A stretch of DNA of 64,000 nt, taken from an uncultured Planctomycetota bacterium. Lineage in GTDB: Bacteria; Planctomycetota; Planctomycetia; Isosphaerales; Isosphaeraceae. Made by a program: the position numbers and the translations under genes. Every line of letters starts with the position of its first letter. Within the stretch, counting starts at the first letter, position 1. The notes under the pieces were generated by a model that worked only from the letters and a program-made list of their open reading frames with translations, searched no databases and was not told where the DNA came from. Below, one piece after another: positions 41,710 through 57,085 of the stretch. The stretch spans positions 1,568,001-1,632,000 of the forward strand of contig CAWGMQ010000006.1 in the NCBI GenBank assembly GCA_963823665.1. The letters run 5' to 3'.

Positions 41710-41788
41710 TTCCGGGTTTGATTCTACAATCTAACGGCCAACCAGGTATAGACTCAGCTTCAAGCTGTGCGCTATGCTGGGTGTACAT

Positions 41789-41864
41789 CGGGGCGTAGCG
41801 CAGCTTGGATTAGCGCGCTTGCTTGGGGTGCAAGAGGTCACCGGTTCAAATCCGGTCGCCCCGA
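41789..41864 (+). tRNA. tRNA-Pro (GGG)
   Basis: CGGGGCG/CGCCCCG acceptor stem, CTTGC-TTGGGGT-GCAAG anticodon arm, GGTTCAAATCC T-arm. Confidence 0.96.
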
Positions 41865-41866
41865 TT
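41823..41866 (+). repeat. attL core (3' half of tRNA-Pro)
   Basis: TTGGGGTGCAAGAGGTCACCGGTTCAAATCCGGTCGCCCCGATT, identical to 57042-57085. Confidence 0.95.
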
Positions 41867-41997: not shown

Positions 41998-43215
41998 ATG
42001 CGACCGAAGAACATCATTCCCACCTACCGACTCCACCAGGCGACCGGGCAAGCTCGTTGCGTCGTCAACGGCAAGACTCACTACCTGGGACCGTACGAAA
42101 GCCCAGAATCCCGGCGCGAGTATGCACGCATCCTTACCGAGCTGGCGGCCGGTAACGGGGTAGTCGCTACCCCGATTCCGGCTCCGTCTGGTACCACGTC
42201 AACGCCCGCCACGTCTGTCTTCGTCTCTGAACTCATCTTAGCTTACAGACGGCATGCGGCGGAATATTACGTCAAGAATGGTCGCAAGACTTCCGAAGTC
42301 GCGATCGTGAAGATGGCAACTGACGTCGTCCACGAGTTGTACCAGCAAAGCCAGGTGACGGAGTTCGGCCCTCTGGCGCTCACGGCATGCCAGCAAAAAC
42401 TCATCGATCAAAAGCTTGCTCGCTCGAGCGTCAACAAGCTGGTGAATCGAATTCGCCTCATGTTCAAGTGGGGTGTCGCGCACCAGATGGTGCCAGAATC
42501 CGTTCATCGGGCGCTTGAGTGCGTCGAGGGGCTTCGCAAGGGACGGAGCAAGGCGACGGAATCGAGAAAGATTCGTCCGGTTCCCGACCAGATCGTAGGC
42601 AAGGCAAGCCCGTTCATGCCGCGGCAGGTGGCTGCGATGGTGCAGCTCCAATCCTTGACCGGGTGCAGGCCCGGCGAAATCGTCATCATCCGCGGGTGTG
42701 ACCTGAACATGAGTGGCAAAATCTGGGAGTACAAGCCGGCGGCATGGAAAACAGAACATCACGAAGACGTTGCCGAGCGAGTGATCTACATCGGCCCGAA
42801 AGCCCAGCGGGTTCTCAAACCGTGGCTCCGTCCCAATTTGAGCGACTACCTGTTCAGCCCGAAAGAAGCGCTTGCCGAGCTCAATGCTGAGCGGCGTGAA
42901 AGTCGCAAGACGCCCGTCTATCCCTCGCATCAAGCCCGCTACGAGCGCGAGAAGGCCCGCCGAGGCCGTCGACCAGATCACGACCACTACACCGTGGAAA
43001 ACTACCGCCAGGCAATCGAGCGCGCTTGCGAAAAGGCCAAGGTGCCAGCGTTCAAGCCGAATCAGTTGCGGCATAGCCTGGCAACCCGGCTCCGTCGAGA
43101 CTTTGGACTCGAGGCCACGGCGGCGGTGCTCGGACATGAGGAATTGGAAACCAGCCAGATTTACGCCGAGAAAGACGCGAAGCTGGCCAAGCAGGTGATG
43201 GGCAAGATCGGTTAA
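41998..43215 (+). CDS. Tyrosine integrase
   Basis: TGCRPGE, QLRH, LGH and IY catalytic motifs; adjacent to attL. Confidence 0.96.
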   Translation: MRPKNIIPTYRLHQATGQARCVVNGKTHYLGPYESPESRREYARILTELAAGNGVVATPIPAPSGTTSTPATSVFVSELILAYRRHAAEYYVKNGRKTSEVAIVKMATDVVHELYQQSQVTEFGPLALTACQQKLIDQKLARSSVNKLVNRIRLMFKWGVAHQMVPESVHRALECVEGLRKGRSKATESRKIRPVPDQIVGKASPFMPRQVAAMVQLQSLTGCRPGEIVIIRGCDLNMSGKIWEYKPAAWKTEHHEDVAERVIYIGPKAQRVLKPWLRPNLSDYLFSPKEALAELNAERRESRKTPVYPSHQARYEREKARRGRRPDHDHYTVENYRQAIERACEKAKVPAFKPNQLRHSLATRLRRDFGLEATAAVLGHEELETSQIYAEKDAKLAKQVMGKIG

Positions 43216-44503: not shown

Positions 44504-44724
44504 GGCCCCTATCCGGGCAGCAGAGTTTTCCGTTTGCTGCACCGACGCCCGCCGTCGCGGCCGCGGTGGTCGAAGATGGTCCACCGTGTTTGAAGTGCAA
44601 CCGGGCAACTGTCGTTTCCGGCGGCAAAGGCCCGCACTATAAGCGTGCCGATTGTCGCTCGTGTGGCGCGTGGTTCTGGATGCCAAAACCGAGGGCCGGC
44701 GGGCAAGGGGGCGCGTCGTCATGA
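44500..44724 (+). CDS. Small zinc-ribbon protein
   Basis: CLKC...GPH....CRSCG; ATGA overlaps on both sides. Confidence 0.7.
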   Translation: MRPLSGQQSFPFAAPTPAVAAAVVEDGPPCLKCNRATVVSGGKGPHYKRADCRSCGAWFWMPKPRAGGQGGASS

Positions 44725-47294
44725 CCTGCATGCTCGAGCGTTCCGCATTCGATACGGCACTACTGGCGCTTGACCTGGGGCTTTCGCCCGGTGTGCCGAT
44801 GCAAGACGGATCGAAGAAACCGGACGGGGCATGGAAGCAATACCAGACGAATCCAGCGACCAAGGGCGAGCTCGAGTCATGGTATCGGGACGGCCGAACG
44901 GGGGTCGGCTTGTTCACGGGATACGGCGACGCCGAATGTTTCGAGTTCGATTGCCGCGCGACCTATGACGATTTCTTGGACGCGCACGGCGACGCCGGGT
45001 TAACGGAATTGGTCGATCGCATCCGGTCGAACTATGAGGAATCCTCGCCAGGCGGTGGCATTCACTGGCTGTATCGGTGCTCGGAACGGCGGGGGAACAC
45101 AAAGCTGGCTGAACGGCCGGCGCCAACCGAGAGCGACCCGCACAAGACGGACGCGCTGATTGAAACTCGCGGAGAAGGCGGTTTTATCATCATCGCGCCG
45201 AGTAACGGGACGGTGCATCCGAGCGGCGGTGCATACAAACTCTTGAGCGGCGCACTCGGAATCATGGCAGTCATCACGCCGGAGGAACGCGACGCGCTCT
45301 GGAATTTCGCCCGGACGTTCGATGAAAAGCCAGAGCAGGCGACGGCGAAGTCGGGACCGTCTGAATTCGTTCAACGAGCATGGGATGGTCCGGCACGAAC
45401 GGACGGCAAGAAACCAGGCGAAGCCTTCAACGAGCAAATGACCTGGGAGGACATTCTCGAGCCGCACGGATGGACGGTGGCGTTTCGTCGGGGCGATAAG
45501 ACCTGGTGGCGGCGACCCGGCAAAGATCGCGACTGGTCGGCAACAACGGGGCATTGCAAAGGGCTCAAGGTCTTTTCGTCGTCCACGCCGTTCAGCACTC
45601 AGGGCACATACACCAAGTTCGGCGCGCACGCGATCTTGAACCACGGTGGCGATTTCAAGCAATCGACGAAGGCACTCGCCGCGGCTGGATTTGGTGAACA
45701 GTCGAGCCAGACCACGAAATCAACCCAGCAATCGCAGCCGACAGCACCGTCCGCGCCGCCGGTGTTTGATGGCGATCCGAGGCCGATCACGATCGCATTG
45801 CATCCGGTGCCGGAGCTCGATCCGCGCATGATCCCGCCGGTGTTCAGGGCATGGCTCGAGGATATTGCAGAGTGCGCATGCCTTCCGCTCGCCTATCCCG
45901 CGGCGGCGCTGTTCGTTGCTCTCAGCGGTCTGATCGGCCGGCGGGTTGCGATCCGTCCCAAGCAATTCGATGACTGGCTTGTCGTGCCGAATCTCTGGGG
46001 TGCCATCGTCGGGCCGCCGGGTTTCTTGAAGACCCCGGCAGTCGAGGCCGTCATGCGTCCGCTCAAGCGGCTTGTGGCCGATGCAATGGCAGAGCACGCC
46101 GCAAAGGTGAAGGAGCATAACGAGCGCCAGCTTGTCGCGACGGCTCGAAGGAAGGCCGCGCAGAAGAACCTGGACGCGGCCGCCAAGAAACCAGACGCGA
46201 CGGAAGCGGACCTGCAAGCACTCGCCAAGATTGCCTTGGCAGACGACACAGAAGAAGAACCGACGTGCAAGCGGTATCTCGTGAACGATTTCACGATCGA
46301 AAAACTGGGTGAATTACTGGTCGAGAACCCGAACGGGTTGACAGTGTTCCGAGATGAGTTGACCGGGTTGCTCAATACGCTGAATCGTGAGGGTCACCAG
46401 AGCGACCGGGGTTTTCTTCTCGAATCGTGGAACGGCAACGGGTCTTACACGTTCGATCGGATCGGCCGGGGCACTCAGCACATACCGGCGGCATGCCTGG
46501 CGCTCTTCGGGACCATCCAGCCCGGACCGCTCGCCCGGTATATGCAAGGGACCATCAAGGGCGATGAGGCGGACGGGTTTATCCCGCGGTTCCAGGTGCT
46601 CGTCTATCCGGACCCGCCGGCAAGCTATGACTATGTTGACCGATGGCCGGACAACGTGGCGAAGAACCACGCTTACAAAGTCTTCAAGGCAATCGACGAA
46701 TTGAACGCGGCGGAGAAAGGATGCAAGGTCGACAGCGACAGCGGGTTTCCCGTCATCAATTTCACACCAGAGGCGCAAGCGTTTTTCAACGGGTGGTATA
46801 CCGACCTGCAACGGCGAATCCGAAGCGGCGAGTTGACGGATATCCTGGCGGCGCATCTTGCGAAGTATGGCTCTTTGATGCCGAGCCTCGCTTTGATCTT
46901 TTATCTCGCGAATGACTGCCAAGCGTTCCAGCTTGGTGGCGTTCCGCTCGAAGATGCGGAAATGGCGGCGGCGTGGTGTGAGTATCTCGAGCAACACGCG
47001 CGGCGGGTCTACCTGCTATGTGCCGATGGCGACGTATCGGTTGCCGGGTCCCTCGCAGAGCGGATCAAGGAATCGCTGCCTGACCCGTTCACGTATCGCC
47101 AGGTGGCACAGAAGGGATGGTCAGGCCTGGGGACGGTGGACGACGTGGAAAGGGCTGTAGGCATCCTGGAAGACCGCGAGTGGGTCAAGACGGTCGAGGT
47201 TAAGTCGGGCGATGCGGCCGGACGGGGCAGACCATCGGTGAAGGTGCACATCCACCCGAAGCTTCGATCCGCCGGCGAAGGGGTGTCGTCATGA
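44721..47294 (+). CDS. Bifunctional primase/polymerase fused to DUF3987 (YfjI-like) helicase-like domain
   Basis: WKQYQ, FEFD, SPGGGIHWLY, IETRGEGG..I.APS; then PNLWGAIVGPPGFLKTP, RDELTG, FGTIQP, DGFIPRF. Confidence 0.9.
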   Translation: MTCMLERSAFDTALLALDLGLSPGVPMQDGSKKPDGAWKQYQTNPATKGELESWYRDGRTGVGLFTGYGDAECFEFDCRATYDDFLDAHGDAGLTELVDRIRSNYEESSPGGGIHWLYRCSERRGNTKLAERPAPTESDPHKTDALIETRGEGGFIIIAPSNGTVHPSGGAYKLLSGALGIMAVITPEERDALWNFARTFDEKPEQATAKSGPSEFVQRAWDGPARTDGKKPGEAFNEQMTWEDILEPHGWTVAFRRGDKTWWRRPGKDRDWSATTGHCKGLKVFSSSTPFSTQGTYTKFGAHAILNHGGDFKQSTKALAAAGFGEQSSQTTKSTQQSQPTAPSAPPVFDGDPRPITIALHPVPELDPRMIPPVFRAWLEDIAECACLPLAYPAAALFVALSGLIGRRVAIRPKQFDDWLVVPNLWGAIVGPPGFLKTPAVEAVMRPLKRLVADAMAEHAAKVKEHNERQLVATARRKAAQKNLDAAAKKPDATEADLQALAKIALADDTEEEPTCKRYLVNDFTIEKLGELLVENPNGLTVFRDELTGLLNTLNREGHQSDRGFLLESWNGNGSYTFDRIGRGTQHIPAACLALFGTIQPGPLARYMQGTIKGDEADGFIPRFQVLVYPDPPASYDYVDRWPDNVAKNHAYKVFKAIDELNAAEKGCKVDSDSGFPVINFTPEAQAFFNGWYTDLQRRIRSGELTDILAAHLAKYGSLMPSLALIFYLANDCQAFQLGGVPLEDAEMAAAWCEYLEQHARRVYLLCADGDVSVAGSLAERIKESLPDPFTYRQVAQKGWSGLGTVDDVERAVGILEDREWVKTVEVKSGDAAGRGRPSVKVHIHPKLRSAGEGVSS

Positions 47295-47326: not shown

Positions 47327-47537
47327 GTTTCTGTAGTTTCTGTAGGCAGTTCCGGACATAGATATGAAGAAAAAACGGACTATAAAATATCTTACTTACT
47401 TACCTTACCTACCTTACTAAATAACCACATAGGTGCGCGGATAGAAAAACTTACTCATTCCTTTGGCCAGGTGCCTACAGAAACTACGAAACCCGTCGCC
47501 AAATCGGAACGAATCGATTCTGTAGTTTTCGTAGGCA
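47327..47537. other. Putative replication origin (iterons plus AT-rich core)
   Basis: TTCTGTAGTTTCTGTAGGCA-like units at 47327, 47472 (inverted) and 47518 around an AT-rich CTTA/CCTTA tract, right after the primase. Confidence 0.65.
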
Positions 47538-48164: not shown

Positions 48165-48447
48165 GCGCATGCAGTCGCGTGTTCAAGTGCAGACGGGGGT
48201 ATGGGGGGGTATGGCTAGGCTAGGCGGGGCGGGTCAACACCTAGAAGTTGTGCGCCGTAAACCGCAGGTGGCCAAATCCGTGCTTGCAATCAGGTTTTTG
48301 CTTCGTTGCCAGGATTCAGCCATGACACAACCCGATTAAACCCCGATTCTGACGCCCATACGCCTCGTGGAGACGTTTTCAGGGGCGAAACCACCTAACG
48401 GTCGGCTTGATCGATTACCGCCACGTGGACCATTTGAGGGACCCGCA

Positions 48448-48816
48448 ATGAGCACAGCCAAGAACCTGAAGATTCGACCGGCGAACCCGGACCCGCCATC
48501 CCACTTGTCCAACAAGGCCGCGGAAATGTGGCGCGCGATGGTCGCCGATTACCGCATGGCAGATGACTGCGTCGGGCTCGGCTTGCTTGAGGCCGCGCTA
48601 TCTGCCTTCGACCGGGCCGAGGAGGCGCGAGAGGTTCTTGACAGGGAAGGTCTGACCGTCAGCGGCGACCGCGGCGGGTCAAAAGCTCACCCGTTGTGTG
48701 CGGTCGAGCGCGACAACCGAGCAGCTTACATCGCGGGGATCAAGGCGCTCAGATTCGACGTCGTCGCAGCGCGGCCGGGACCTGGACGTCCAGCCGGCCC
48801 GGCGCGGAGGTACTGA
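48448..48816 (+). CDS. Phage terminase small subunit, P27 family-like
   Basis: PPSHLS..A..MW...LLE..L..FDR...A..VL.REGLTV..DRGG.KAHP...ERD.R. Confidence 0.85.
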   Translation: MSTAKNLKIRPANPDPPSHLSNKAAEMWRAMVADYRMADDCVGLGLLEAALSAFDRAEEAREVLDREGLTVSGDRGGSKAHPLCAVERDNRAAYIAGIKALRFDVVAARPGPGRPAGPARRY

Positions 48817-49256: not shown

Positions 49257-50612
49257 ATGAGTTTTCGATCACGTTTCAACCCTGATTTTCACCGAGAGAG
49301 GAAAACACCTATGAGTGCTTTGCAAACGAGAACCCGCCGGCGCGACACCATTCCCAAGGGCGGCGACCGGCTGGTTGACGACGAAATCGAGGACGCCTTC
49401 GGCGGAGACGGACCCAGCGACCCCGACCCGACGCAGCCCGACAATTCCAAGTTCGGCCAGCTTCCCGGATTGAAGGCGCTCTACGACGCTGCGAAGAAAG
49501 GCTACTTCTACAGCTTCGGCCGGGCGATCCACGGGGCTTTCAAGGCCGGACCGAACGGCACGCTTCCCGGACTCGAAGGCGAAGTCTCTCAGGAGATGTT
49601 GCTTCGCGCGCCCAATCAGCGGCGTGGTTACCGGGTGCCCTGGGTTTATCCGAGGCGTCCGGGCGAGCGCCGCGCCCTAACGTTGAGCGCCGGCGCAGGA
49701 AGCGTTACTCCGCAGCTTCAATCTCCCGTGGATGTTTTGCGCTCCAAGATGGTGTGCCAGCGGCTCGGCGCGAACGTCACCAACTTCACGGGCGAAGGAC
49801 CGCAAGGATTTATTCAAATCCCATTCAGATCGGCCGGCAGTACGGCGAGCTGGGTTGCCGAAAATGCGGCGCCGTCATCGTCCAGCAACGCCACGACGCA
49901 GGGGTGGGTCATGAAACCCAACACCGTCACGGCCTACTCGGACATCACGCGCCGGATGTTGACTCTCGGTCAGGAAGGATTTGAAGCCTACTCGCTCGCG
50001 GAGGTCATGCGATCAATCGCAGTCGAGGTCGATCGCGCGACGCTCAACGGCTCTGGTCAGAATTCGCAGCCCCTGGGAATCCTGCAAGACTTCCTGCCCA
50101 GCGTGACTCCCGCGGCTGGGCTGGGTGGTTCGATCGCCATCGCGGACTTGTACGAAATCGAGGCGACGCTTGGCCAGAATAACGGCGACGCGCCCGCCGA
50201 TTCTCGACTCGGCTGGGTCACCTCTCCCGCGGGCCGCAAGGCTCTGCGAAAAGTCGACCTGGGCGGCGCCACGGACACCGGGCACCCGGCGTGGTGGCCG
50301 AAAACCTACATCGTCGACAACAAGCCGGTCATTATCGAGGAATTGATCGGATGGCCGGCCCTTTCGACGTGTTCGGTGCCTGCCAACCTGAACGCTTCAA
50401 ACTACACGACGCTCGCTCTGGGTAATTGGAACGATGTGATCATCAATTTATGGGATGGCTTCGATTTCAACGCCATGCCCGCCACGGTAGTTAACCCCTT
50501 CCTTCAGAGCGTTTCGGGTGTCGTGCGCGTAAGTTGCTTTGTTGACGCCGACGTGTTGCTTGTTCGACCGGGTTCATTCTGTCTCTGCGCCGGCTGGGCG
50601 GCGCCGTACTGA
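49257..50612 (+). CDS. HK97-fold major capsid protein (probable start 49311)
   Basis: YSFGRAI..EVSQE, ASWVAEN..P, TVTAYSDITRRML, IAVEVDRATLNGSG..QPLGIL, GNW, VNPF. Confidence 0.88.
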   Translation: MSFRSRFNPDFHRERKTPMSALQTRTRRRDTIPKGGDRLVDDEIEDAFGGDGPSDPDPTQPDNSKFGQLPGLKALYDAAKKGYFYSFGRAIHGAFKAGPNGTLPGLEGEVSQEMLLRAPNQRRGYRVPWVYPRRPGERRALTLSAGAGSVTPQLQSPVDVLRSKMVCQRLGANVTNFTGEGPQGFIQIPFRSAGSTASWVAENAAPSSSSNATTQGWVMKPNTVTAYSDITRRMLTLGQEGFEAYSLAEVMRSIAVEVDRATLNGSGQNSQPLGILQDFLPSVTPAAGLGGSIAIADLYEIEATLGQNNGDAPADSRLGWVTSPAGRKALRKVDLGGATDTGHPAWWPKTYIVDNKPVIIEELIGWPALSTCSVPANLNASNYTTLALGNWNDVIINLWDGFDFNAMPATVVNPFLQSVSGVVRVSCFVDADVLLVRPGSFCLCAGWAAPY

Positions 50613-52864: not shown

Positions 52865-53058
52865 GGCCCGAGGCGCTTCGGTCGAGGGATTCGGCGGGCG
52901 CGCTATCGCATCGCAGGGGATTGGGACATTTGTCGTTCGCGGTGTTATACTAATGAGCAGTGTGCGCCCAGATAGGCGGTTGCAAAATTTGCCGAGTCAC
53001 GTAACATCACTTAGGGTCTAACGAAGTTGTTTCTAACTAATCTATTCGGAGTGCCTCG

Positions 53059-53727
53059 ATGTCGAAAGACTCCGACTTATTCGGTGTTGTCGTAATCGGG
53101 GCAATGAACCCGCGAATTCATCATCCGGCGTGGTACCAGTTGGTAAAACTGATTAGCGGCCAAGAAGCAGAACATGCCACCCAAACGCAGCCAGTCGTGT
53201 GTACTCCAGCGTATTCCCAATTCGGACTGGGCGAGATCGATATCAAGTGTCTACCCGACCGATGGGACATAACAACCCGATCGAGCGCGAACATCGATCG
53301 AATCCGCGAAATCGCACAACGGCTGTTCGACGATGTGCTCCTGCACACTCCGGTAAACATCGTGGCGCTAAATTTCGAGTACGTCCGTCAGGTTTCCGGT
53401 GCAAACGCAACGGAGATTATCGCTCGGAAGTTGAACGTCGCGGCCGGGGAGTTGGGCCTGGGCAATGCGGAGGCGGGTGATCTTTTTCTAAAGCGAGCCC
53501 TTGTGACGAACGAATCCGTGCAAGGAATCGCGACTGTCATAGTACGGACTGCGGACAGCTCGGATATGTTCGGGCTTTCTTGCAATTATCAATATACGAT
53601 AAGGCTTAGCGACGGACTGTTTCGGTTCGACGCGTTTCTGCCCGAATATGCACAGCGTGACCGAGTTGACGCGGAACAATCACTAGCGCGACTGACATCC
53701 GCGATAGCTTCCGCGCGAAAGGACTAA
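53059..53727 (+). CDS. Cargo gene 1, TIGR04255-like hypothetical
   Basis: VVVIGAMNPRI.HP.W...LHTPV...LNF; GGAG before the start; more AT-rich than flanks. Confidence 0.65.
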   Translation: MSKDSDLFGVVVIGAMNPRIHHPAWYQLVKLISGQEAEHATQTQPVVCTPAYSQFGLGEIDIKCLPDRWDITTRSSANIDRIREIAQRLFDDVLLHTPVNIVALNFEYVRQVSGANATEIIARKLNVAAGELGLGNAEAGDLFLKRALVTNESVQGIATVIVRTADSSDMFGLSCNYQYTIRLSDGLFRFDAFLPEYAQRDRVDAEQSLARLTSAIASARKD

Positions 53728-53730
53728 CCC

Positions 53731-54336
53731 GTGGCCATTGCGATCCAAATGCCGACATCTTTGAAGAACGAAAATCTTTTCGCCGAAACAATGGATACTT
53801 GGCAGTCAATCGAGACGGCTCTCGTGGACTGCTGGCGCATGTTCGGCGGCGCTCCAGTCTCGCCAGCGATCTCGGTGCAGGGAGCGCTGGAACGGAGCGC
53901 GGACCAAGCCCAAATCCTCCACGACCACGCCTTACGTTTGTCCGGTAGGCTTATGGTTCACAAACAATTGGAGCGAGTGCGGCGACTGCGGCAAAACTGG
54001 GACGGCGACGGTGCCGATCCGATCAACCCGGCGATCATCGCAACAGCCAGCCGATTCCTTGCTAAGTTCGGAGACAGCTTTCGCACTTCGCCGCGCGTCG
54101 TTCCAATGACAATGGGTCGAGTTCAATTGGAATGGCATCGGGGCAACCGTTCGCTGGAAATCGAATTTGAGACGCCTGAACTTGTACACTATCTGAAGTG
54201 GGATAGCGACGAGGCCATCGAAGAGGAAGAACTTATCCCTGCTTCGTCGGAAGTCGCTATTAGAAATCTACTGTTGTGGTTCTCCTCGGAGAAGAGGAAT
54301 GCCGATCCCGCCGGACGCAGGTCCACAAGTGCCTGA
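53731..54336 (+). CDS. Cargo gene 2, NWDGxGA-motif hypothetical
   Basis: L..NWDGDGADPI...PRVVP...GRVQLEW.....LEIEF; starts 3 nt after gene 1. Confidence 0.7.
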   Translation: MAIAIQMPTSLKNENLFAETMDTWQSIETALVDCWRMFGGAPVSPAISVQGALERSADQAQILHDHALRLSGRLMVHKQLERVRRLRQNWDGDGADPINPAIIATASRFLAKFGDSFRTSPRVVPMTMGRVQLEWHRGNRSLEIEFETPELVHYLKWDSDEAIEEEELIPASSEVAIRNLLLWFSSEKRNADPAGRRSTSA

Positions 54337-54700
54337 TTTCGAGAATGTACTTAGAGGAATAGTCGACGAAATGCAATGGGATTGTGAAAGCGACTGTCCC
54401 TCGAGCGCTGCCTTCGATAAGGCGATATTCTCTGTGGATCGAAGCGCGCTTACTACGCCGCCGGAAACTGTCGCCAGACTTCGCTCGTTTGGCATGTCAG
54501 TTCTAGCCTTGGTGGAGTTCAACTGTGGAGAGGCGAGGAAACATGGTTTTGATACGCGGGACGAGCGCGACGATGTGGCTCCTGATAACGCCGCGCACGC
54601 GCATGTCTACAATTTGTGGTACACCGAAGAGTCAACCAAAGCCGGGCGCAAGAAAAAAGCCAGAAAAATGAAGGATATCTGCTCAAAAGTGACGTTCTGA
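54299..54700 (+). CDS. Cargo gene 3, putative ADP-ribosyltransferase-fold toxin
   Basis: E.VLR...PSSAAF....SVD...DN.AHA.V pattern; overlaps gene 2 by 38 nt. Confidence 0.55.
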   Translation: MPIPPDAGPQVPDFENVLRGIVDEMQWDCESDCPSSAAFDKAIFSVDRSALTTPPETVARLRSFGMSVLALVEFNCGEARKHGFDTRDERDDVAPDNAAHAHVYNLWYTEESTKAGRKKKARKMKDICSKVTF

Positions 54701-54819: not shown

Positions 54820-55029
54820 CTACGGATCGGGCTCGAGCACAACCGTCCCGTCCGCTCGTTCGATCGCGATACCCCAGCGGCGCGAGGTGTGACCAGACGG
54901 GAGCGGATCTCCGCTTATCTCGTCCACGTGGTAACGACCCGGCTCGCTCGAGCGAATCGCGGGCTCAAGCTGGTCGATGGTATCGACGTCGACGATGGGC
55001 TCTTGTCCGTTCTGGGTGATTCTGAACAT
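54820..55029 (-). CDS. Small hypothetical protein
   Basis: PGRYHVDEISGDPLPSGHTSRRWG. Confidence 0.6.
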   Translation of the reverse strand: MFRITQNGQEPIVDVDTIDQLEPAIRSSEPGRYHVDEISGDPLPSGHTSRRWGIAIERADGTVVLEPDP

Positions 55030-55057
55030 CGGCGTTCTATTACTGAAAGACCATGTC

Positions 55058-55342
55058 TCAGCCTCGGAACCGGGAGAAGCCTCGCCAATGAACCGCTACC
55101 GAGATAATCCAGCACACCACGAAAAAGACCGGCATCCATGCTAATATATAACCGCGCCGGGGGGCCTCGCCCGTCATGGTGTGGATGGCGTCCCAACCGC
55201 AAATGGTCCAAAAGATAGCTGTTACCAGGCCTACGAGTGAAATGCCTGCTTTGAGTGGTTCCGTGTTAGCGGCTCCTAGAGCGGCGACAAGTATCGTGGC
55301 CGCAAGCAAGAAAATCTCGGAGAGTTTGAATAGATCGTCCAA
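55058..55342 (-). CDS. Small three-TM membrane protein
   Basis: AAGGAG before the TTG start; three hydrophobic segments. Confidence 0.6.
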   Translation of the reverse strand: MDDLFKLSEIFLLAATILVAALGAANTEPLKAGISLVGLVTAIFWTICGWDAIHTMTGEAPRRGYILAWMPVFFVVCWIISVAVHWRGFSRFRG

Positions 55343-55460
55343 TTCGGGCTCCTTGATTGAGCGAAAGTTCGTCGAGTCCCGATGCCGTAGTCAATATGCG
55401 GGTGGGCGAGCGTAATCACAAGACGGTAGCAGTGCAAAAAGAAAAGTTGATTGCCACCTG

Positions 55461-55547
55461 AAGAACCTGCCGGTCGCGAAGGAGCGGATGTACCTGGCGG
55501 GGTTAAGGCTGGCGAGGGTCCTCAACGAGGCGTTGGCCGATGAGTGA
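55461..55547 (+). pseudogene. Orphan C-terminal helix of an S1/P1 nuclease
   Basis: KNLPVAKERMYLAGLRLARVLNEALADE* matches the family C-terminal AG.RLA..LN motif; no start. Confidence 0.6.
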
Positions 55548-55569
55548 TCAAGATGGCGCACGGGGTGGG

Positions 55570-56135
55570 TTACTGTCGACCAGCAGGGGAGATGACCCCG
55601 AAGAATAATATCAGGATGAACACGACCGGCACGGCAAAGGCGAGCCCCAAAAGTATCGCCTGCTGCAGATCAGGTAGGACCTGGAACCAGGCCCACGGGC
55701 CGGGCTGAATGCCTCTTGCGAGATAGACGGTGTTTTGTCTGGCGCACCGACTTTTGTATCGTAGGACAACTGACTGCCAGCATGACACAGTGCGCTTCCA
55801 GCATGACACGGCGCATGCCGCTATCGCCTTAGCGAATCGCCGCACTTGTTCGCGCTGCGCTTTATCTCGCGCCTAGTCGCCTCTGCGGACGCCGTTGAAG
55901 ATTGGACGAGGTTATATCCGCAAGATCGGCAGTGCGTTCGCGATCCCTTCAGGGAGATCTGCCTGCCGCAAACGGGGCAGTAGGGAAGTCCGTTCCTCCA
56001 GACCGCGTTCTGACTTTTGTTGATCGCTTGTATCACCGCGATGACGCAAGCTGCCAGCGAAAGCAGTACCACGATCAGAGCGACGACGGGGTTCTCTTGG
56101 TGCTTCGCGGCGAACAAGACCACGCTTGTCAACAT
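55570..56135 (-). CDS. Membrane-anchored zinc-ribbon protein (probably one gene, frameshift ~55845)
   Basis: TM + CPVC...CRSC in ORF 55821-56228; C-terminal TM in ORF 55570-55845. Confidence 0.5.
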
Positions 56136-56594
56136 CGTGGTTCTCCAACCGGGGCTGGCGGCCCGCAATCGCTTACAGGACGGCTTGAGGCAAGCATGGG
56201 ATGCCCGGGCCGCTACCTGGCAGGCCAACGCCCGGGCTGGCGGGGTTCATGATCGCGCCAGCGCGAGAGTGAAGTACCTTCGAGCGCGACGGCGCACCAA
56301 TCCGGCCGAGCACCTTAGGATCCGCCTGGCTCCGCGGGCCGGACGGTATCTAGTTTCGCTGAGCGGAAGGGGCATCGCAAGCGGGTGGAGTTGTCACGCC
56401 CGAGGCCCTATACGCTCGCCAGGGGCGTCCGCGGTGCTCTGGACGTGGAAAGCGTCGGCCAGGCGCTCTGAATCGCTGTCAAAGGGCTATGGATGGCTGG
56501 ACGCCCGGACTTCGCTCACGTGAACCCCATCCGCTCACCTAAGGATTCGTACGCCTTGCGATGGGCTTCGACGTATAGCTCAGTTTGGTGAGCG

Positions 56595-56846
56595 TCATAT
56601 CCGGTTCTCGTCAGCTTGTTCCTTGGCGAATTCGATTGCCTGGGCCGACAGGACGTCAAACATTTCCCTCTGGGTCTTCCCAAGCAAAGGTGCTGCGAGC
56701 ACGGCCATCTGCCCGTTGAATCGCACTCCGTGAAAAATCTCGTTCAGGAATGCCTCTCGCTGCTCGGGGGTTCCATTCATCCCATTGCGGCGAAACTCGA
56801 ACATCTTTTGTTCCAATTCCCTGCCCAGCGTCCACCAATTCATCAT
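56595..56846 (-). CDS. Hypothetical protein near attR
   Basis: Strong AAGGAGG before the ATG; 83 aa. Confidence 0.6.
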   Translation of the reverse strand: MMNWWTLGRELEQKMFEFRRNGMNGTPEQREAFLNEIFHGVRFNGQMAVLAAPLLGKTQREMFDVLSAQAIEFAKEQADENRI

Positions 56847-57041
56847 TCCTCCTTGCGGTGCATCCCGCGGATGACGGCGGCGCTAATCAATCGGGGTAAC
56901 TACCCTAAAACCCTACCGATTACCCAATAATATCGCAAATGAGAGCAGTTTCGGGGTAGTATTGCAAATGGGCGAAAACTACGGTATTATGCTGCATTTA
57001 TAGGGTATTTCGATTCTGACTCACAGGGGTTTCGGGGTTCT

Positions 57042-57085
57042 TTGGGGTGCAAGAGGTCACCGGTTCAAATCCGGTCGCCCCGATT
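57042..57085 (+). repeat. attR core (duplicated tRNA-Pro 3' half)
   Basis: 44/44 identical to 41823-41866; the tRNA 5' half is absent. Confidence 0.95.

Follow-up and report, generated by a model that had tools for sequence, protein, structure and literature searches.

To our knowledge, how the toxins of toxin-antitoxin (TA) systems are released upon infection is an open question. In toxin-antitoxin-chaperone (TAC) systems, SecB senses phage structural proteins. The available text of 10.1101/2024.02.24.581848 describes antitoxins whose disordered C-terminal tag makes them dependent on the chaperone, with one helper family, SecB, serving many toxin pairs, and three-gene systems composed of an ADP-ribosyltransferase (ART), an antitoxin and SecB are noted, after Aravind 2015, in the accessible part of PMC7159879. 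Here, we describe a three-gene operon within a 64,000-nt stretch of DNA (hereafter the window) from an uncultured soil bacterium of the Planctomycetota, family Isosphaeraceae (GCA_963823665.1, contig CAWGMQ010000006.1, positions 1,568,001 to 1,632,000), carried as cargo of a satellite. Our tentative reading, which we hold at a little short of probable as a complete mechanism, is that the operon would be a TAC-like system in mirror image, with a non-SecB helper and an N-terminal addiction tag. Its features are as follows.

53059-53727, + strand: gene 1, 222 aa, accessory "slot" protein and putative chaperone or sensor
53731-54336, + strand: gene 2, 201 aa, GTG start, putative antitoxin
53731-53952, + strand: gene 2 N-terminal extension, residues 1-74, starting MAIAIQMP, variable, candidate chaperone-addiction tag
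53953-54336, + strand: gene 2 core (residues 75-186, with the NWDG motif and an acidic, beta-rich C-terminal half) and tail
54299-54700, + strand: gene 3, 133 aa, minimal ART-fold toxin candidate
52923-52951, + strand: sigma-70-like promoter candidate, GGGACA-17-TATACT with an extended -10, about 110 nt 5' of gene 1

The first-pass annotation of this DNA had described three coupled, comparatively AT-rich genes in a cargo position, and the open reading frames (ORFs) agree: genes 1 and 2 are separated by 3 nt, genes 2 and 3 overlap by 38 nt, a Shine-Dalgarno-like GGAG/AGGA lies upstream of each, and the operon has 54.0% GC against 60.1% in the core of the att-bounded satellite and 60-62% in the flanks. 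We regard the coupling as above chance because the same gene order is seen again in dozens of loci; the three genes co-occur in other genomes, as the annotation had expected of a single system. The promoter candidate is at chance level (1 found versus 1.1 expected after shuffling), its position being its only merit. The two motifs that the annotation had singled out are likewise present, NWDGxGA as NWDGDGA at residues 89-95 of gene 2 and the R...S-x-D...H pattern as R19, S45-V-D47 and H100 of gene 3.

A profile search recovered 179 relatives of gene 3 at E ≤ 0.001, the closest of them in records titled Isosphaeraceae or Planctomycetota, and 114 near-full-length sequences were aligned after leaving out fragments and one long spurious row. 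Across this alignment, R19 is conserved in 108/114 members, S45 in 113/114 and H100 in 113/114. In the structural model (pLDDT 96), R19 lies in E16-21 (beta1), S45 in E43-48 (beta2) and H100 in a late strand, E100-105. An exhaustive search with VIA placed KptA first (Z 7.5, root-mean-square deviation (rmsd) 3.0, 92 aligned residues), followed by AvrPphF ORF2 (Z 6.3), Scabin (5.8), Tpt1 (5.4) and Tse2 (5.3), together with a RES toxin, TreX, Tne2, TreTu and DarT; among the 50 matches listed, sorted into ART and non-ART by their titles and by recall, only rank 40, a capping enzyme, was recognised as unrelated. Foldseek gave no match at E ≤ 0.001 and also ranked KptA first. As the Z values are middling, the case is carried by a list made up almost uniformly of ART folds and by the strands on which R, S and H lie. 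The model thus shows gene 3 as a predicted minimal ART-fold protein with an R-S-H triad, in keeping with the ART fold that the earlier annotation had proposed. As in the R-S-E clade, strand 1 bears the Arg and strand 2 the Ser, an equivalence inferred from strand order, and the acidic catalytic residue expected on the late strand is absent, His100 standing there in 113/114 members, so that the layout is R-S-E with His replacing Glu. An R-S-H triad is reportedly described for Tse2 too.

By sequence, the family is nearly featureless. No Pfam entry, RES included, matched any of the 114 members, the gene of the window had no match in NCBIfam or PHROGs, and Pfam did not bear out DUF6098, an Atlas neighbour of gene 3 (0.92, 162 shared features). 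Sequence searches of the PDB with the gene 3, gene 2 and TIGR04255 profiles yielded nothing credible, weak ferritin matches being dismissed. By contrast, 43/114 family members match the PADLOC model PDC-M32B, with a best E of 2.5e-12.

We consider it very probable that gene 3 would act as a toxin that consumes NAD+. Both KptA and RES proteins move ADP-ribose onto phosphate (PMC9503650, available part), which makes either a nucleic-acid end as acceptor or NAD+ breakdown plausible for gene 3. Our first choice, put forward as the leading candidate at somewhat less than an even chance, would be ADP-ribosylation of nucleic acid, because KptA/Tpt1 and Scabin come closest to gene 3 in fold and its C-terminal helix is basic (net positive in 110/113); NAD+ degradation in the manner of RES toxins would be less likely, and protein modification or another activity a little less likely again. 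The same fold matches could be taken to mean that gene 3 is a non-toxic enzyme of RNA or ADP-ribose repair, like KptA/Tpt1, and the three genes a repair or regulatory unit. We find this very improbable, given that the gene is sporadic (19/401 genomes), has a fixed upstream partner and several frameshifted copies, exchanges its position with HEPN, PIN and MBL genes, and at 133 aa aligns with the C-terminal half of KptA alone (residues 85-180).

The partner of gene 3 is remarkably constant. Gene 2 lies directly 5' of gene 3 in 50/52 gene-3-anchored loci, near-duplicates included (metagenome 13/13; genome 19/19, one of them a contig-edge fragment; phylum sample 18/20, where 4 of the 18 gene 2 matches are weak, E 5e-4 to 0.016). 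Searching from gene 2 instead gave matches in 34/401 genomes, of which 30 of 39 places were fetched, and an R..S..H gene followed gene 2 in 12/14 new loci, five of them judged by eye. Among 12 close relatives with long extensions, identity to gene 2 is 42-57% in the core, 0-15% over residues 9-74 and up to 88% over residues 1-8. Gene 2 of the window has no Pfam, NCBIfam or PHROG match and no recognised DNA-binding domain; its core matches PADLOC PDC-M32A at positions 250-351 of 375 (E 1.3e-9). In one locus without a gene in the first slot (L031), the core is fused to a ribbon-helix-helix (RHH) domain, RHH_1, above the Pfam cut-off. From these sequence features, a type II antitoxin is what gene 2 looks like, because of its fixed place 5' of gene 3, its acidic core and the RHH fusion, and the antitoxin role assigned to it at first pass stands. 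The net charge of core residues 131-186 is negative in 56/56 sequences, a complementarity to the positive helix of gene 3 that would fit pairing of the two. We are thus confident that genes 2 and 3 form a real, conserved TA-type pair, and by the same measure the acidic core would in all likelihood bind and block gene 3 in type II fashion. The pair is also, judging from its profile matches, distantly related to the PADLOC candidate PDC-M32A/B, itself a prediction.

Two further observations concern this pair. Frameshifted or interrupted copies of gene 2 or gene 3 occur in L015/L027, L023, L026, L049, L055 and L077, where assembly error is possible; broken copies are common for costly toxin cassettes. 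Moreover, in a 73.6-kb IMG/VR virus record (L035:5914-6354), a cpYpsA/SLOG gene is directly followed by a gene that consists of the gene 2 core with a very short N-terminal part and has no gene 3 downstream; this may be an orphan antitoxin that a phage carries as anti-defence.

Gene 1 is harder to place. Its model (pLDDT 94, from 29 sequences) contains two repeats of beta-alpha-beta(3-4)-alpha and is, as modelled, a duplicated TBP-like or guanido-kinase-type sheet. What it matches in fold searches are other duplicated sheets of a generic kind, namely McsB and arginine kinases (Z 7.4-8.6), AdoMetDC (7.4) and TATA-binding proteins (TBPs; 6-7, one of them at 6.9). The best is the McsB kinase domain (Z 8.5-8.6, ~166 residues, rmsd 4.2, 12% identity), and the top Foldseek matches are TBPs, viral ones among them, with an rmsd of 10-14 by Foldseek and 5.6 by VIA. 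The sole full-length structural match is an unnamed 202-aa viral protein in BFVD, A0A515MGR4 (E 6e-10, TM 0.58), the encoding genome of which was not found by tblastn. Gene 1 has no match in Pfam, NCBIfam, PADLOC or PHROGs, and a scan confirmed none in IMG/VR; tblastn of two distant gene-1 relatives against phages, and of gene 2 against phages and plasmids, was likewise without a match. SecB and PsbP/Mog1 are absent from the matches listed in three fold searches with the gene 1 model, the SecB profile PF02556 has 0 matches in the window's own genome, and hhalign of gene 1 against four SecB-like proteins gave an E of 0.13 with a shallow profile. The beta-alpha-beta3-alpha order of the second repeat resembles that of SecB, so that a remote link is conceivable. 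The halves of gene 1 were also aligned with each other and with SecB-like and DUF3467-like proteins, and nothing was found.

The first-pass annotation had called gene 1 TIGR04255-like, which does not hold at the level of the hidden Markov model (HMM): at >30 bits the TIGR04255 HMM matches neither gene 1, nor any of 16 close relatives, nor any of 13 further gene-1-family proteins. What stands is that TIGR04255 is its language-model neighbour (Atlas feature score 0.95, of low recognition value), that the two share a gene slot, and that hhalign (E 0.4) and a later profile-profile comparison (68 columns in register, E 0.096) gave alignments that are non-significant. We therefore treat the link between gene 1 and TIGR04255 as functional, through the shared slot, rather than as sequence homology.

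That slot was surveyed in 60 loci, leaving out near-duplicates, three loci without a usable gene 2 and the frameshifted L026. The gene 5' of gene 2 belongs to the gene-1 family in 16 loci (among them L030, from G401, flagged unpublished; no conclusion rests on L030 alone), is TIGR04255-like in 28 and a small DUF3467-like gene in 3 (one called from a Pfam match below cut-off, the other two by eye), and the slot is empty in 13. Loci without a slot gene are scattered over the tree with 12 changes, a number as low in 279/500 shuffles, and gene 1 has no match in the genome of L016, the locus with the closest gene 3 relative.

Slot genes also head other pairs. Searching 401 genomes with gene 1 found 19 matches, spread over 16 genomes; with the window's own gene, one match at a contig end and one spurious match excluded and L095 added, 17 distant relatives were assessable. 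All of them (17/17) are followed by two coupled ORFs, none of which matches the gene 2 profile. Partners with Pfam support (4/17) are HEPN (L103, L112), MBL hydrolase (L101) and DUF5678 with an aspartyl protease (L109), and those judged by eye are HEAT-repeat middle genes before ART/RES-like genes, PIN-like and papain-like genes; an unannotated "LTQxCD" family is also found among the genes 3' of these relatives. TIGR04255 scored above its cut-off in 31/201 genomes sampled from this phylum, and 30 of 43 places were fetched. It precedes gene 2 in 6 fetched loci, and 5 are of no clear type; the other pairs 3' of it are PIN, DUF7689, helix-turn-helix (HTH) plus LTQxCD, HEPN-like and HicAB-like. 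No slot gene scanned had a PADLOC match. Taken together, gene 1 looks like an exchangeable accessory of TA pairs.

Because TBPs head its Foldseek list, gene 1 could alternatively be a nucleic-acid-binding regulator with a TBP-like saddle, acting as a repressor of the operon or a sensor of phage nucleic acid, genes 2 and 3 being the TA pair and the extension of gene 2 a docking arm only. Two loci with an empty slot have an RHH or RHH-like domain replacing the extension, as if DNA binding had been substituted, and gene 2 of the window has no recognised DNA-binding domain of its own. However, the TBP superposition is poor by either program, and TIGR04255 persists in cassettes where the middle gene already encodes an HTH (L115, L130), although the homology of TIGR04255 to gene 1 is unproven. 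On balance we find a regulator unlikely.

The slot families turned up several further loci. Third genes with an L[TS]Q[STD]CD motif follow both gene-1 relatives and TIGR04255 (L105, L110, L117, L118, L121, L123-L130, L134 and L135); scanned members of this LTQxCD family have no Pfam or PADLOC match, making it, from its sequences and positions, a candidate undescribed toxin family. The window's own genome holds a second gene-1-like cassette (G000:C7:148963-149391, L114), its third gene HEPN-like by eye, and three TIGR04255 genes (G000:C5:847730-848467, L129; C5:1822019-1822732; C8:1619502-1620242). On another contig of the same genome, a 338-aa gene (L061:872-2325; G000:C6, ~941 kb) matches PDC-M32A positions 104-246 (E 1.4e-5) and is followed by a gene that is PIN-like by eye. 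That PDC-M32A might be a fusion of gene 1 and gene 2 was considered and rejected, as the gene 1 family has no match to it and positions 104-246 match this other gene; the N-terminal part of PDC-M32A may itself be another exchangeable module.

We then compared the gene 2 extension between loci with and without a slot gene, taking its length from the first allowed start codon, picked by rule, to the conserved Trp and leaving out two loci with an empty slot (short flank or no start). The median is 70 aa with a slot gene versus 47 aa without, and extensions of at least 50 aa are found in 45/47 loci with a slot gene versus 4/11 without (rank test, p = 1.7e-4, kin treated as independent). Among the four long extensions without a slot gene, one is the RHH fusion and one is RHH-like by eye.

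These lengths bear on whether gene 1 protects the antitoxin or gives it away. As a protease adaptor or sensor, it would be an activator that hands the antitoxin over for degradation on infection, and its best fold match, the McsB kinase domain, is of this kind, McsB being a partner of ClpC; loss of gene 1 is also tolerated in many loci, as expected if it is unneeded for neutralisation. The McsB match is, however, one that unrelated duplicated sheets give too, and an extension that is usually short where gene 1 is missing is a better fit to an addiction tag. We therefore find an activator distinctly unlikely. In the mirror-image TAC reading that we prefer, gene 1, translated first, would bind the variable N-terminal extension of gene 2 and keep gene 2 folded or undegraded; if a phage protein then competed for gene 1, the antitoxin would be left stranded and the toxin released; we give these two steps, taken jointly, slightly better than an even chance. 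The outcome would probably be abortive defence, to the gain of satellite and host. A wider proposition, possible and to us somewhat short of probable, is that gene 1 and TIGR04255, for which DUF3467-like single-repeat proteins could also stand in, constitute a widespread second class of TA chaperone-sensors, SecB-independent, encoded first and holding an N-terminal tag, that would serve at least six toxin types (R-S-H ART, HEPN, PIN, MBL hydrolase, proteases and the unannotated LTQxCD family), each cassette being a phage-triggered defence.

Several results weigh against the mirror-image TAC reading. For the extension, only 3 independent pairs fall on well-supported branches of what is a quick tree (median p 0.5), too few for significance; one deletion could remove gene 1 together with the adjoining 5' end of gene 2, which is a real alternative; and start codons were picked by rule, with L033 having a slot gene and an extension value of 34 aa. 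Nine loci with an empty slot retain the gene 2-gene 3 pair, so that gene 1 is not obligatory for the family. The folds matched by gene 1 (McsB, TBP, AdoMetDC) point to no chaperone, and its homology to TIGR04255 is non-significant. For gene 3, the best Z (7.5) is in the range that VIA grades as middling, Foldseek gave no match at its threshold, His takes the place of the catalytic Glu seen in R-S-E enzymes, and the gene of the window has no PDC-M32B match (E ≤ 1).

The cassette travels on several kinds of mobile DNA. An intact TIGR04255-gene 2-gene 3 cassette lies in an unannotated Peduoviridae phage record (L152:131-2058, ON170239.1), and one of the TIGR04255 type is also found on a Mycobacterium paragordonae plasmid. 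In L031 (G406:C226), the RHH-fused gene 2 and its gene 3 are flanked by an N6/N4 DNA methylase on one side and by a PIN-like gene with pglZ on the other, a BREX-like setting. In the window, the carrier is a 15.2-kb satellite integrated at tRNA-Pro in a 16.5-Mb host genome, with the operon placed between the core genes and attR.

41788-41865, + strand: tRNA-Pro(GGG), integration site
41814-41866, + strand: attL direct repeat, 53 nt
57033-57085, + strand: attR direct repeat, 53 nt, 92% identical to attL and 15,219 nt away
41998-43215, + strand: tyrosine integrase (PF00589, phrog_1)
44652-47294, + strand: primase-polymerase and DUF3987 replicase
48367-48816, + strand: P27-like terminase small subunit (phrog_83, E 4e-10; TIGR01558 below cut-off)
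49257-50612, + strand: HK97-type major capsid protein (PF05065, TIGR01554)

Capsid and small terminase are present; in 20 ORFs scanned against Pfam and PHROGs, neither a portal nor a large terminase could be recognised. The rest of the cargo (54820-56846, - strand) comprises ORFs of 69 aa, 94 aa (hydrophobic), 135 aa (a membrane segment and a zinc ribbon) and 83 aa, of no clear family. Just 3' of the primase gene lies a perfect 16-nt inverted repeat (47333-47348 and 47472-47487), a possible replication origin element. Homologs of this satellite's genes were near none of the 33 related loci inspected, and no att joint was listed in the sequencing-run DNA contigs, which are short pieces and uninformative on excision. 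Among the sequencing runs, no RNA data set was listed as containing this DNA, which is likewise uninformative on expression.

As an inference from context, a link to defence is suggested by satellite cargo, the relation to PDC-M32, the L031 setting, and phage and plasmid carriage. PDC candidates were, according to the available text of 10.1101/2024.01.29.577857, picked for embedding in BREX, DISARM or restriction-modification (RM) systems and are predictions, outside the set of systems assayed there; "M32" does not occur in the part of its main text available, and in the literature searched PDC-M32 appears, as far as the accessible text of PMC12429752 goes, as a bare detection in a Sinorhizobium prophage. 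The same carriers (satellite, plasmid and temperate phage) would suit an addiction module that stabilises mobile DNA and has no anti-phage role, as would the flanks, most of which look ordinary by eye, without a recognisable defence island. Such a module is nonetheless quite unlikely in our view: PDC candidates were chosen for that embedding, L031 is such a case, and a third gene would be of little gain to an integrated element if addiction were its sole purpose.

The literature searched holds no description of this architecture and no mention of TIGR04255; subscription papers, e.g. Aravind 2015 on three-gene ART systems, could hold prior notice. If the mirror-image reading is true, an architecture with an unrelated helper would mean that the same trigger logic evolved at least twice, and the orphan TIGR04255 family, seen in 31/201 genomes sampled from the phylum, would gain a role; on the wider proposition, a new clade of R-S-H ART toxins would be defined as well. 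The chemistry of this small ART is a candidate for a new kind of ADP-ribosylation. Any gene of the TIGR04255 or gene-1 type would then mark new toxins, several of the downstream families being without a match in Pfam or PADLOC. Beyond this cassette, the slot family is the more important lead: its members stand at the head of many other toxin-antidote pairs, which suggests that bacteria have another way to keep such toxins on a trigger.

Among known systems, the likeness to CmdTAC/PD-T4-9, as far as the available texts of PMC11618068 and 10.1101/2024.02.24.581848 describe it, lies in three genes carried as mobile-element cargo, an ART-fold toxin, an antitoxin of which one part is variable and probably disordered, and a third gene that could serve as chaperone and sensor, here putatively. 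The differences are several. CmdT is of the diphtheria-toxin H-Y-[E/D/Q] class (PMC11618068, same part), whereas gene 3 is R-S-H; CmdA has two helices and an unstructured C-terminus ending in LAA, whereas in gene 2 the conserved core is C-terminal and the extension lies at the N-terminus. CmdC is homologous to SecB, but no SecB profile matches gene 1, a duplicated domain of 222 aa. The gene order, too, is reversed, helper-antitoxin-toxin here versus toxin-antitoxin-chaperone. The kinship to CmdTAC proposed at first pass is thus unsupported, given the different triad and gene order, a disordered part on the other side of the antitoxin and the lack of a SecB profile match for gene 1, and the cassette is not a member of CmdTAC, nor of TAC as defined.

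Compared with PDC-M32, gene 2 resembles, in its core, the C-terminal portion of PDC-M32A, and the family of gene 3 resembles PDC-M32B; unlike the cassette, PDC-M32 is modelled as two genes, and the first 250 of the 375 positions of PDC-M32A are unmatched by gene 1. With KptA/Tpt1, RES toxins, Tse2, Scabin and TreX, gene 3 shares a minimal ART core (Z 4.8-7.5), and differs from these relatives in its 6-14% identity and the lack of any Pfam match in 114 members or PDB sequence match; for RES toxins in particular, Pfam RES finds 0/114 and the structural Z is 4.8 and lower. The TIGR04255 HMM misses gene 1 and the profile alignment of the two is non-significant, as given above; TIGR04255 shares with gene 1 the first slot 5' of the gene 2-gene 3 pair (14 loci) and of the same other toxin types. 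Finally, the published definition of TAC comprises a SecB-like chaperone and a C-terminal ChAD, whereas here the helper is non-SecB by profile and comes first, and the tag is N-terminal. Like TAC systems (HigBAC, MqsRAC), the cassettes described here have one helper family for many unrelated TA pairs, and an antitoxin extension that stands beside the helper gene and is short or missing when the helper is absent.

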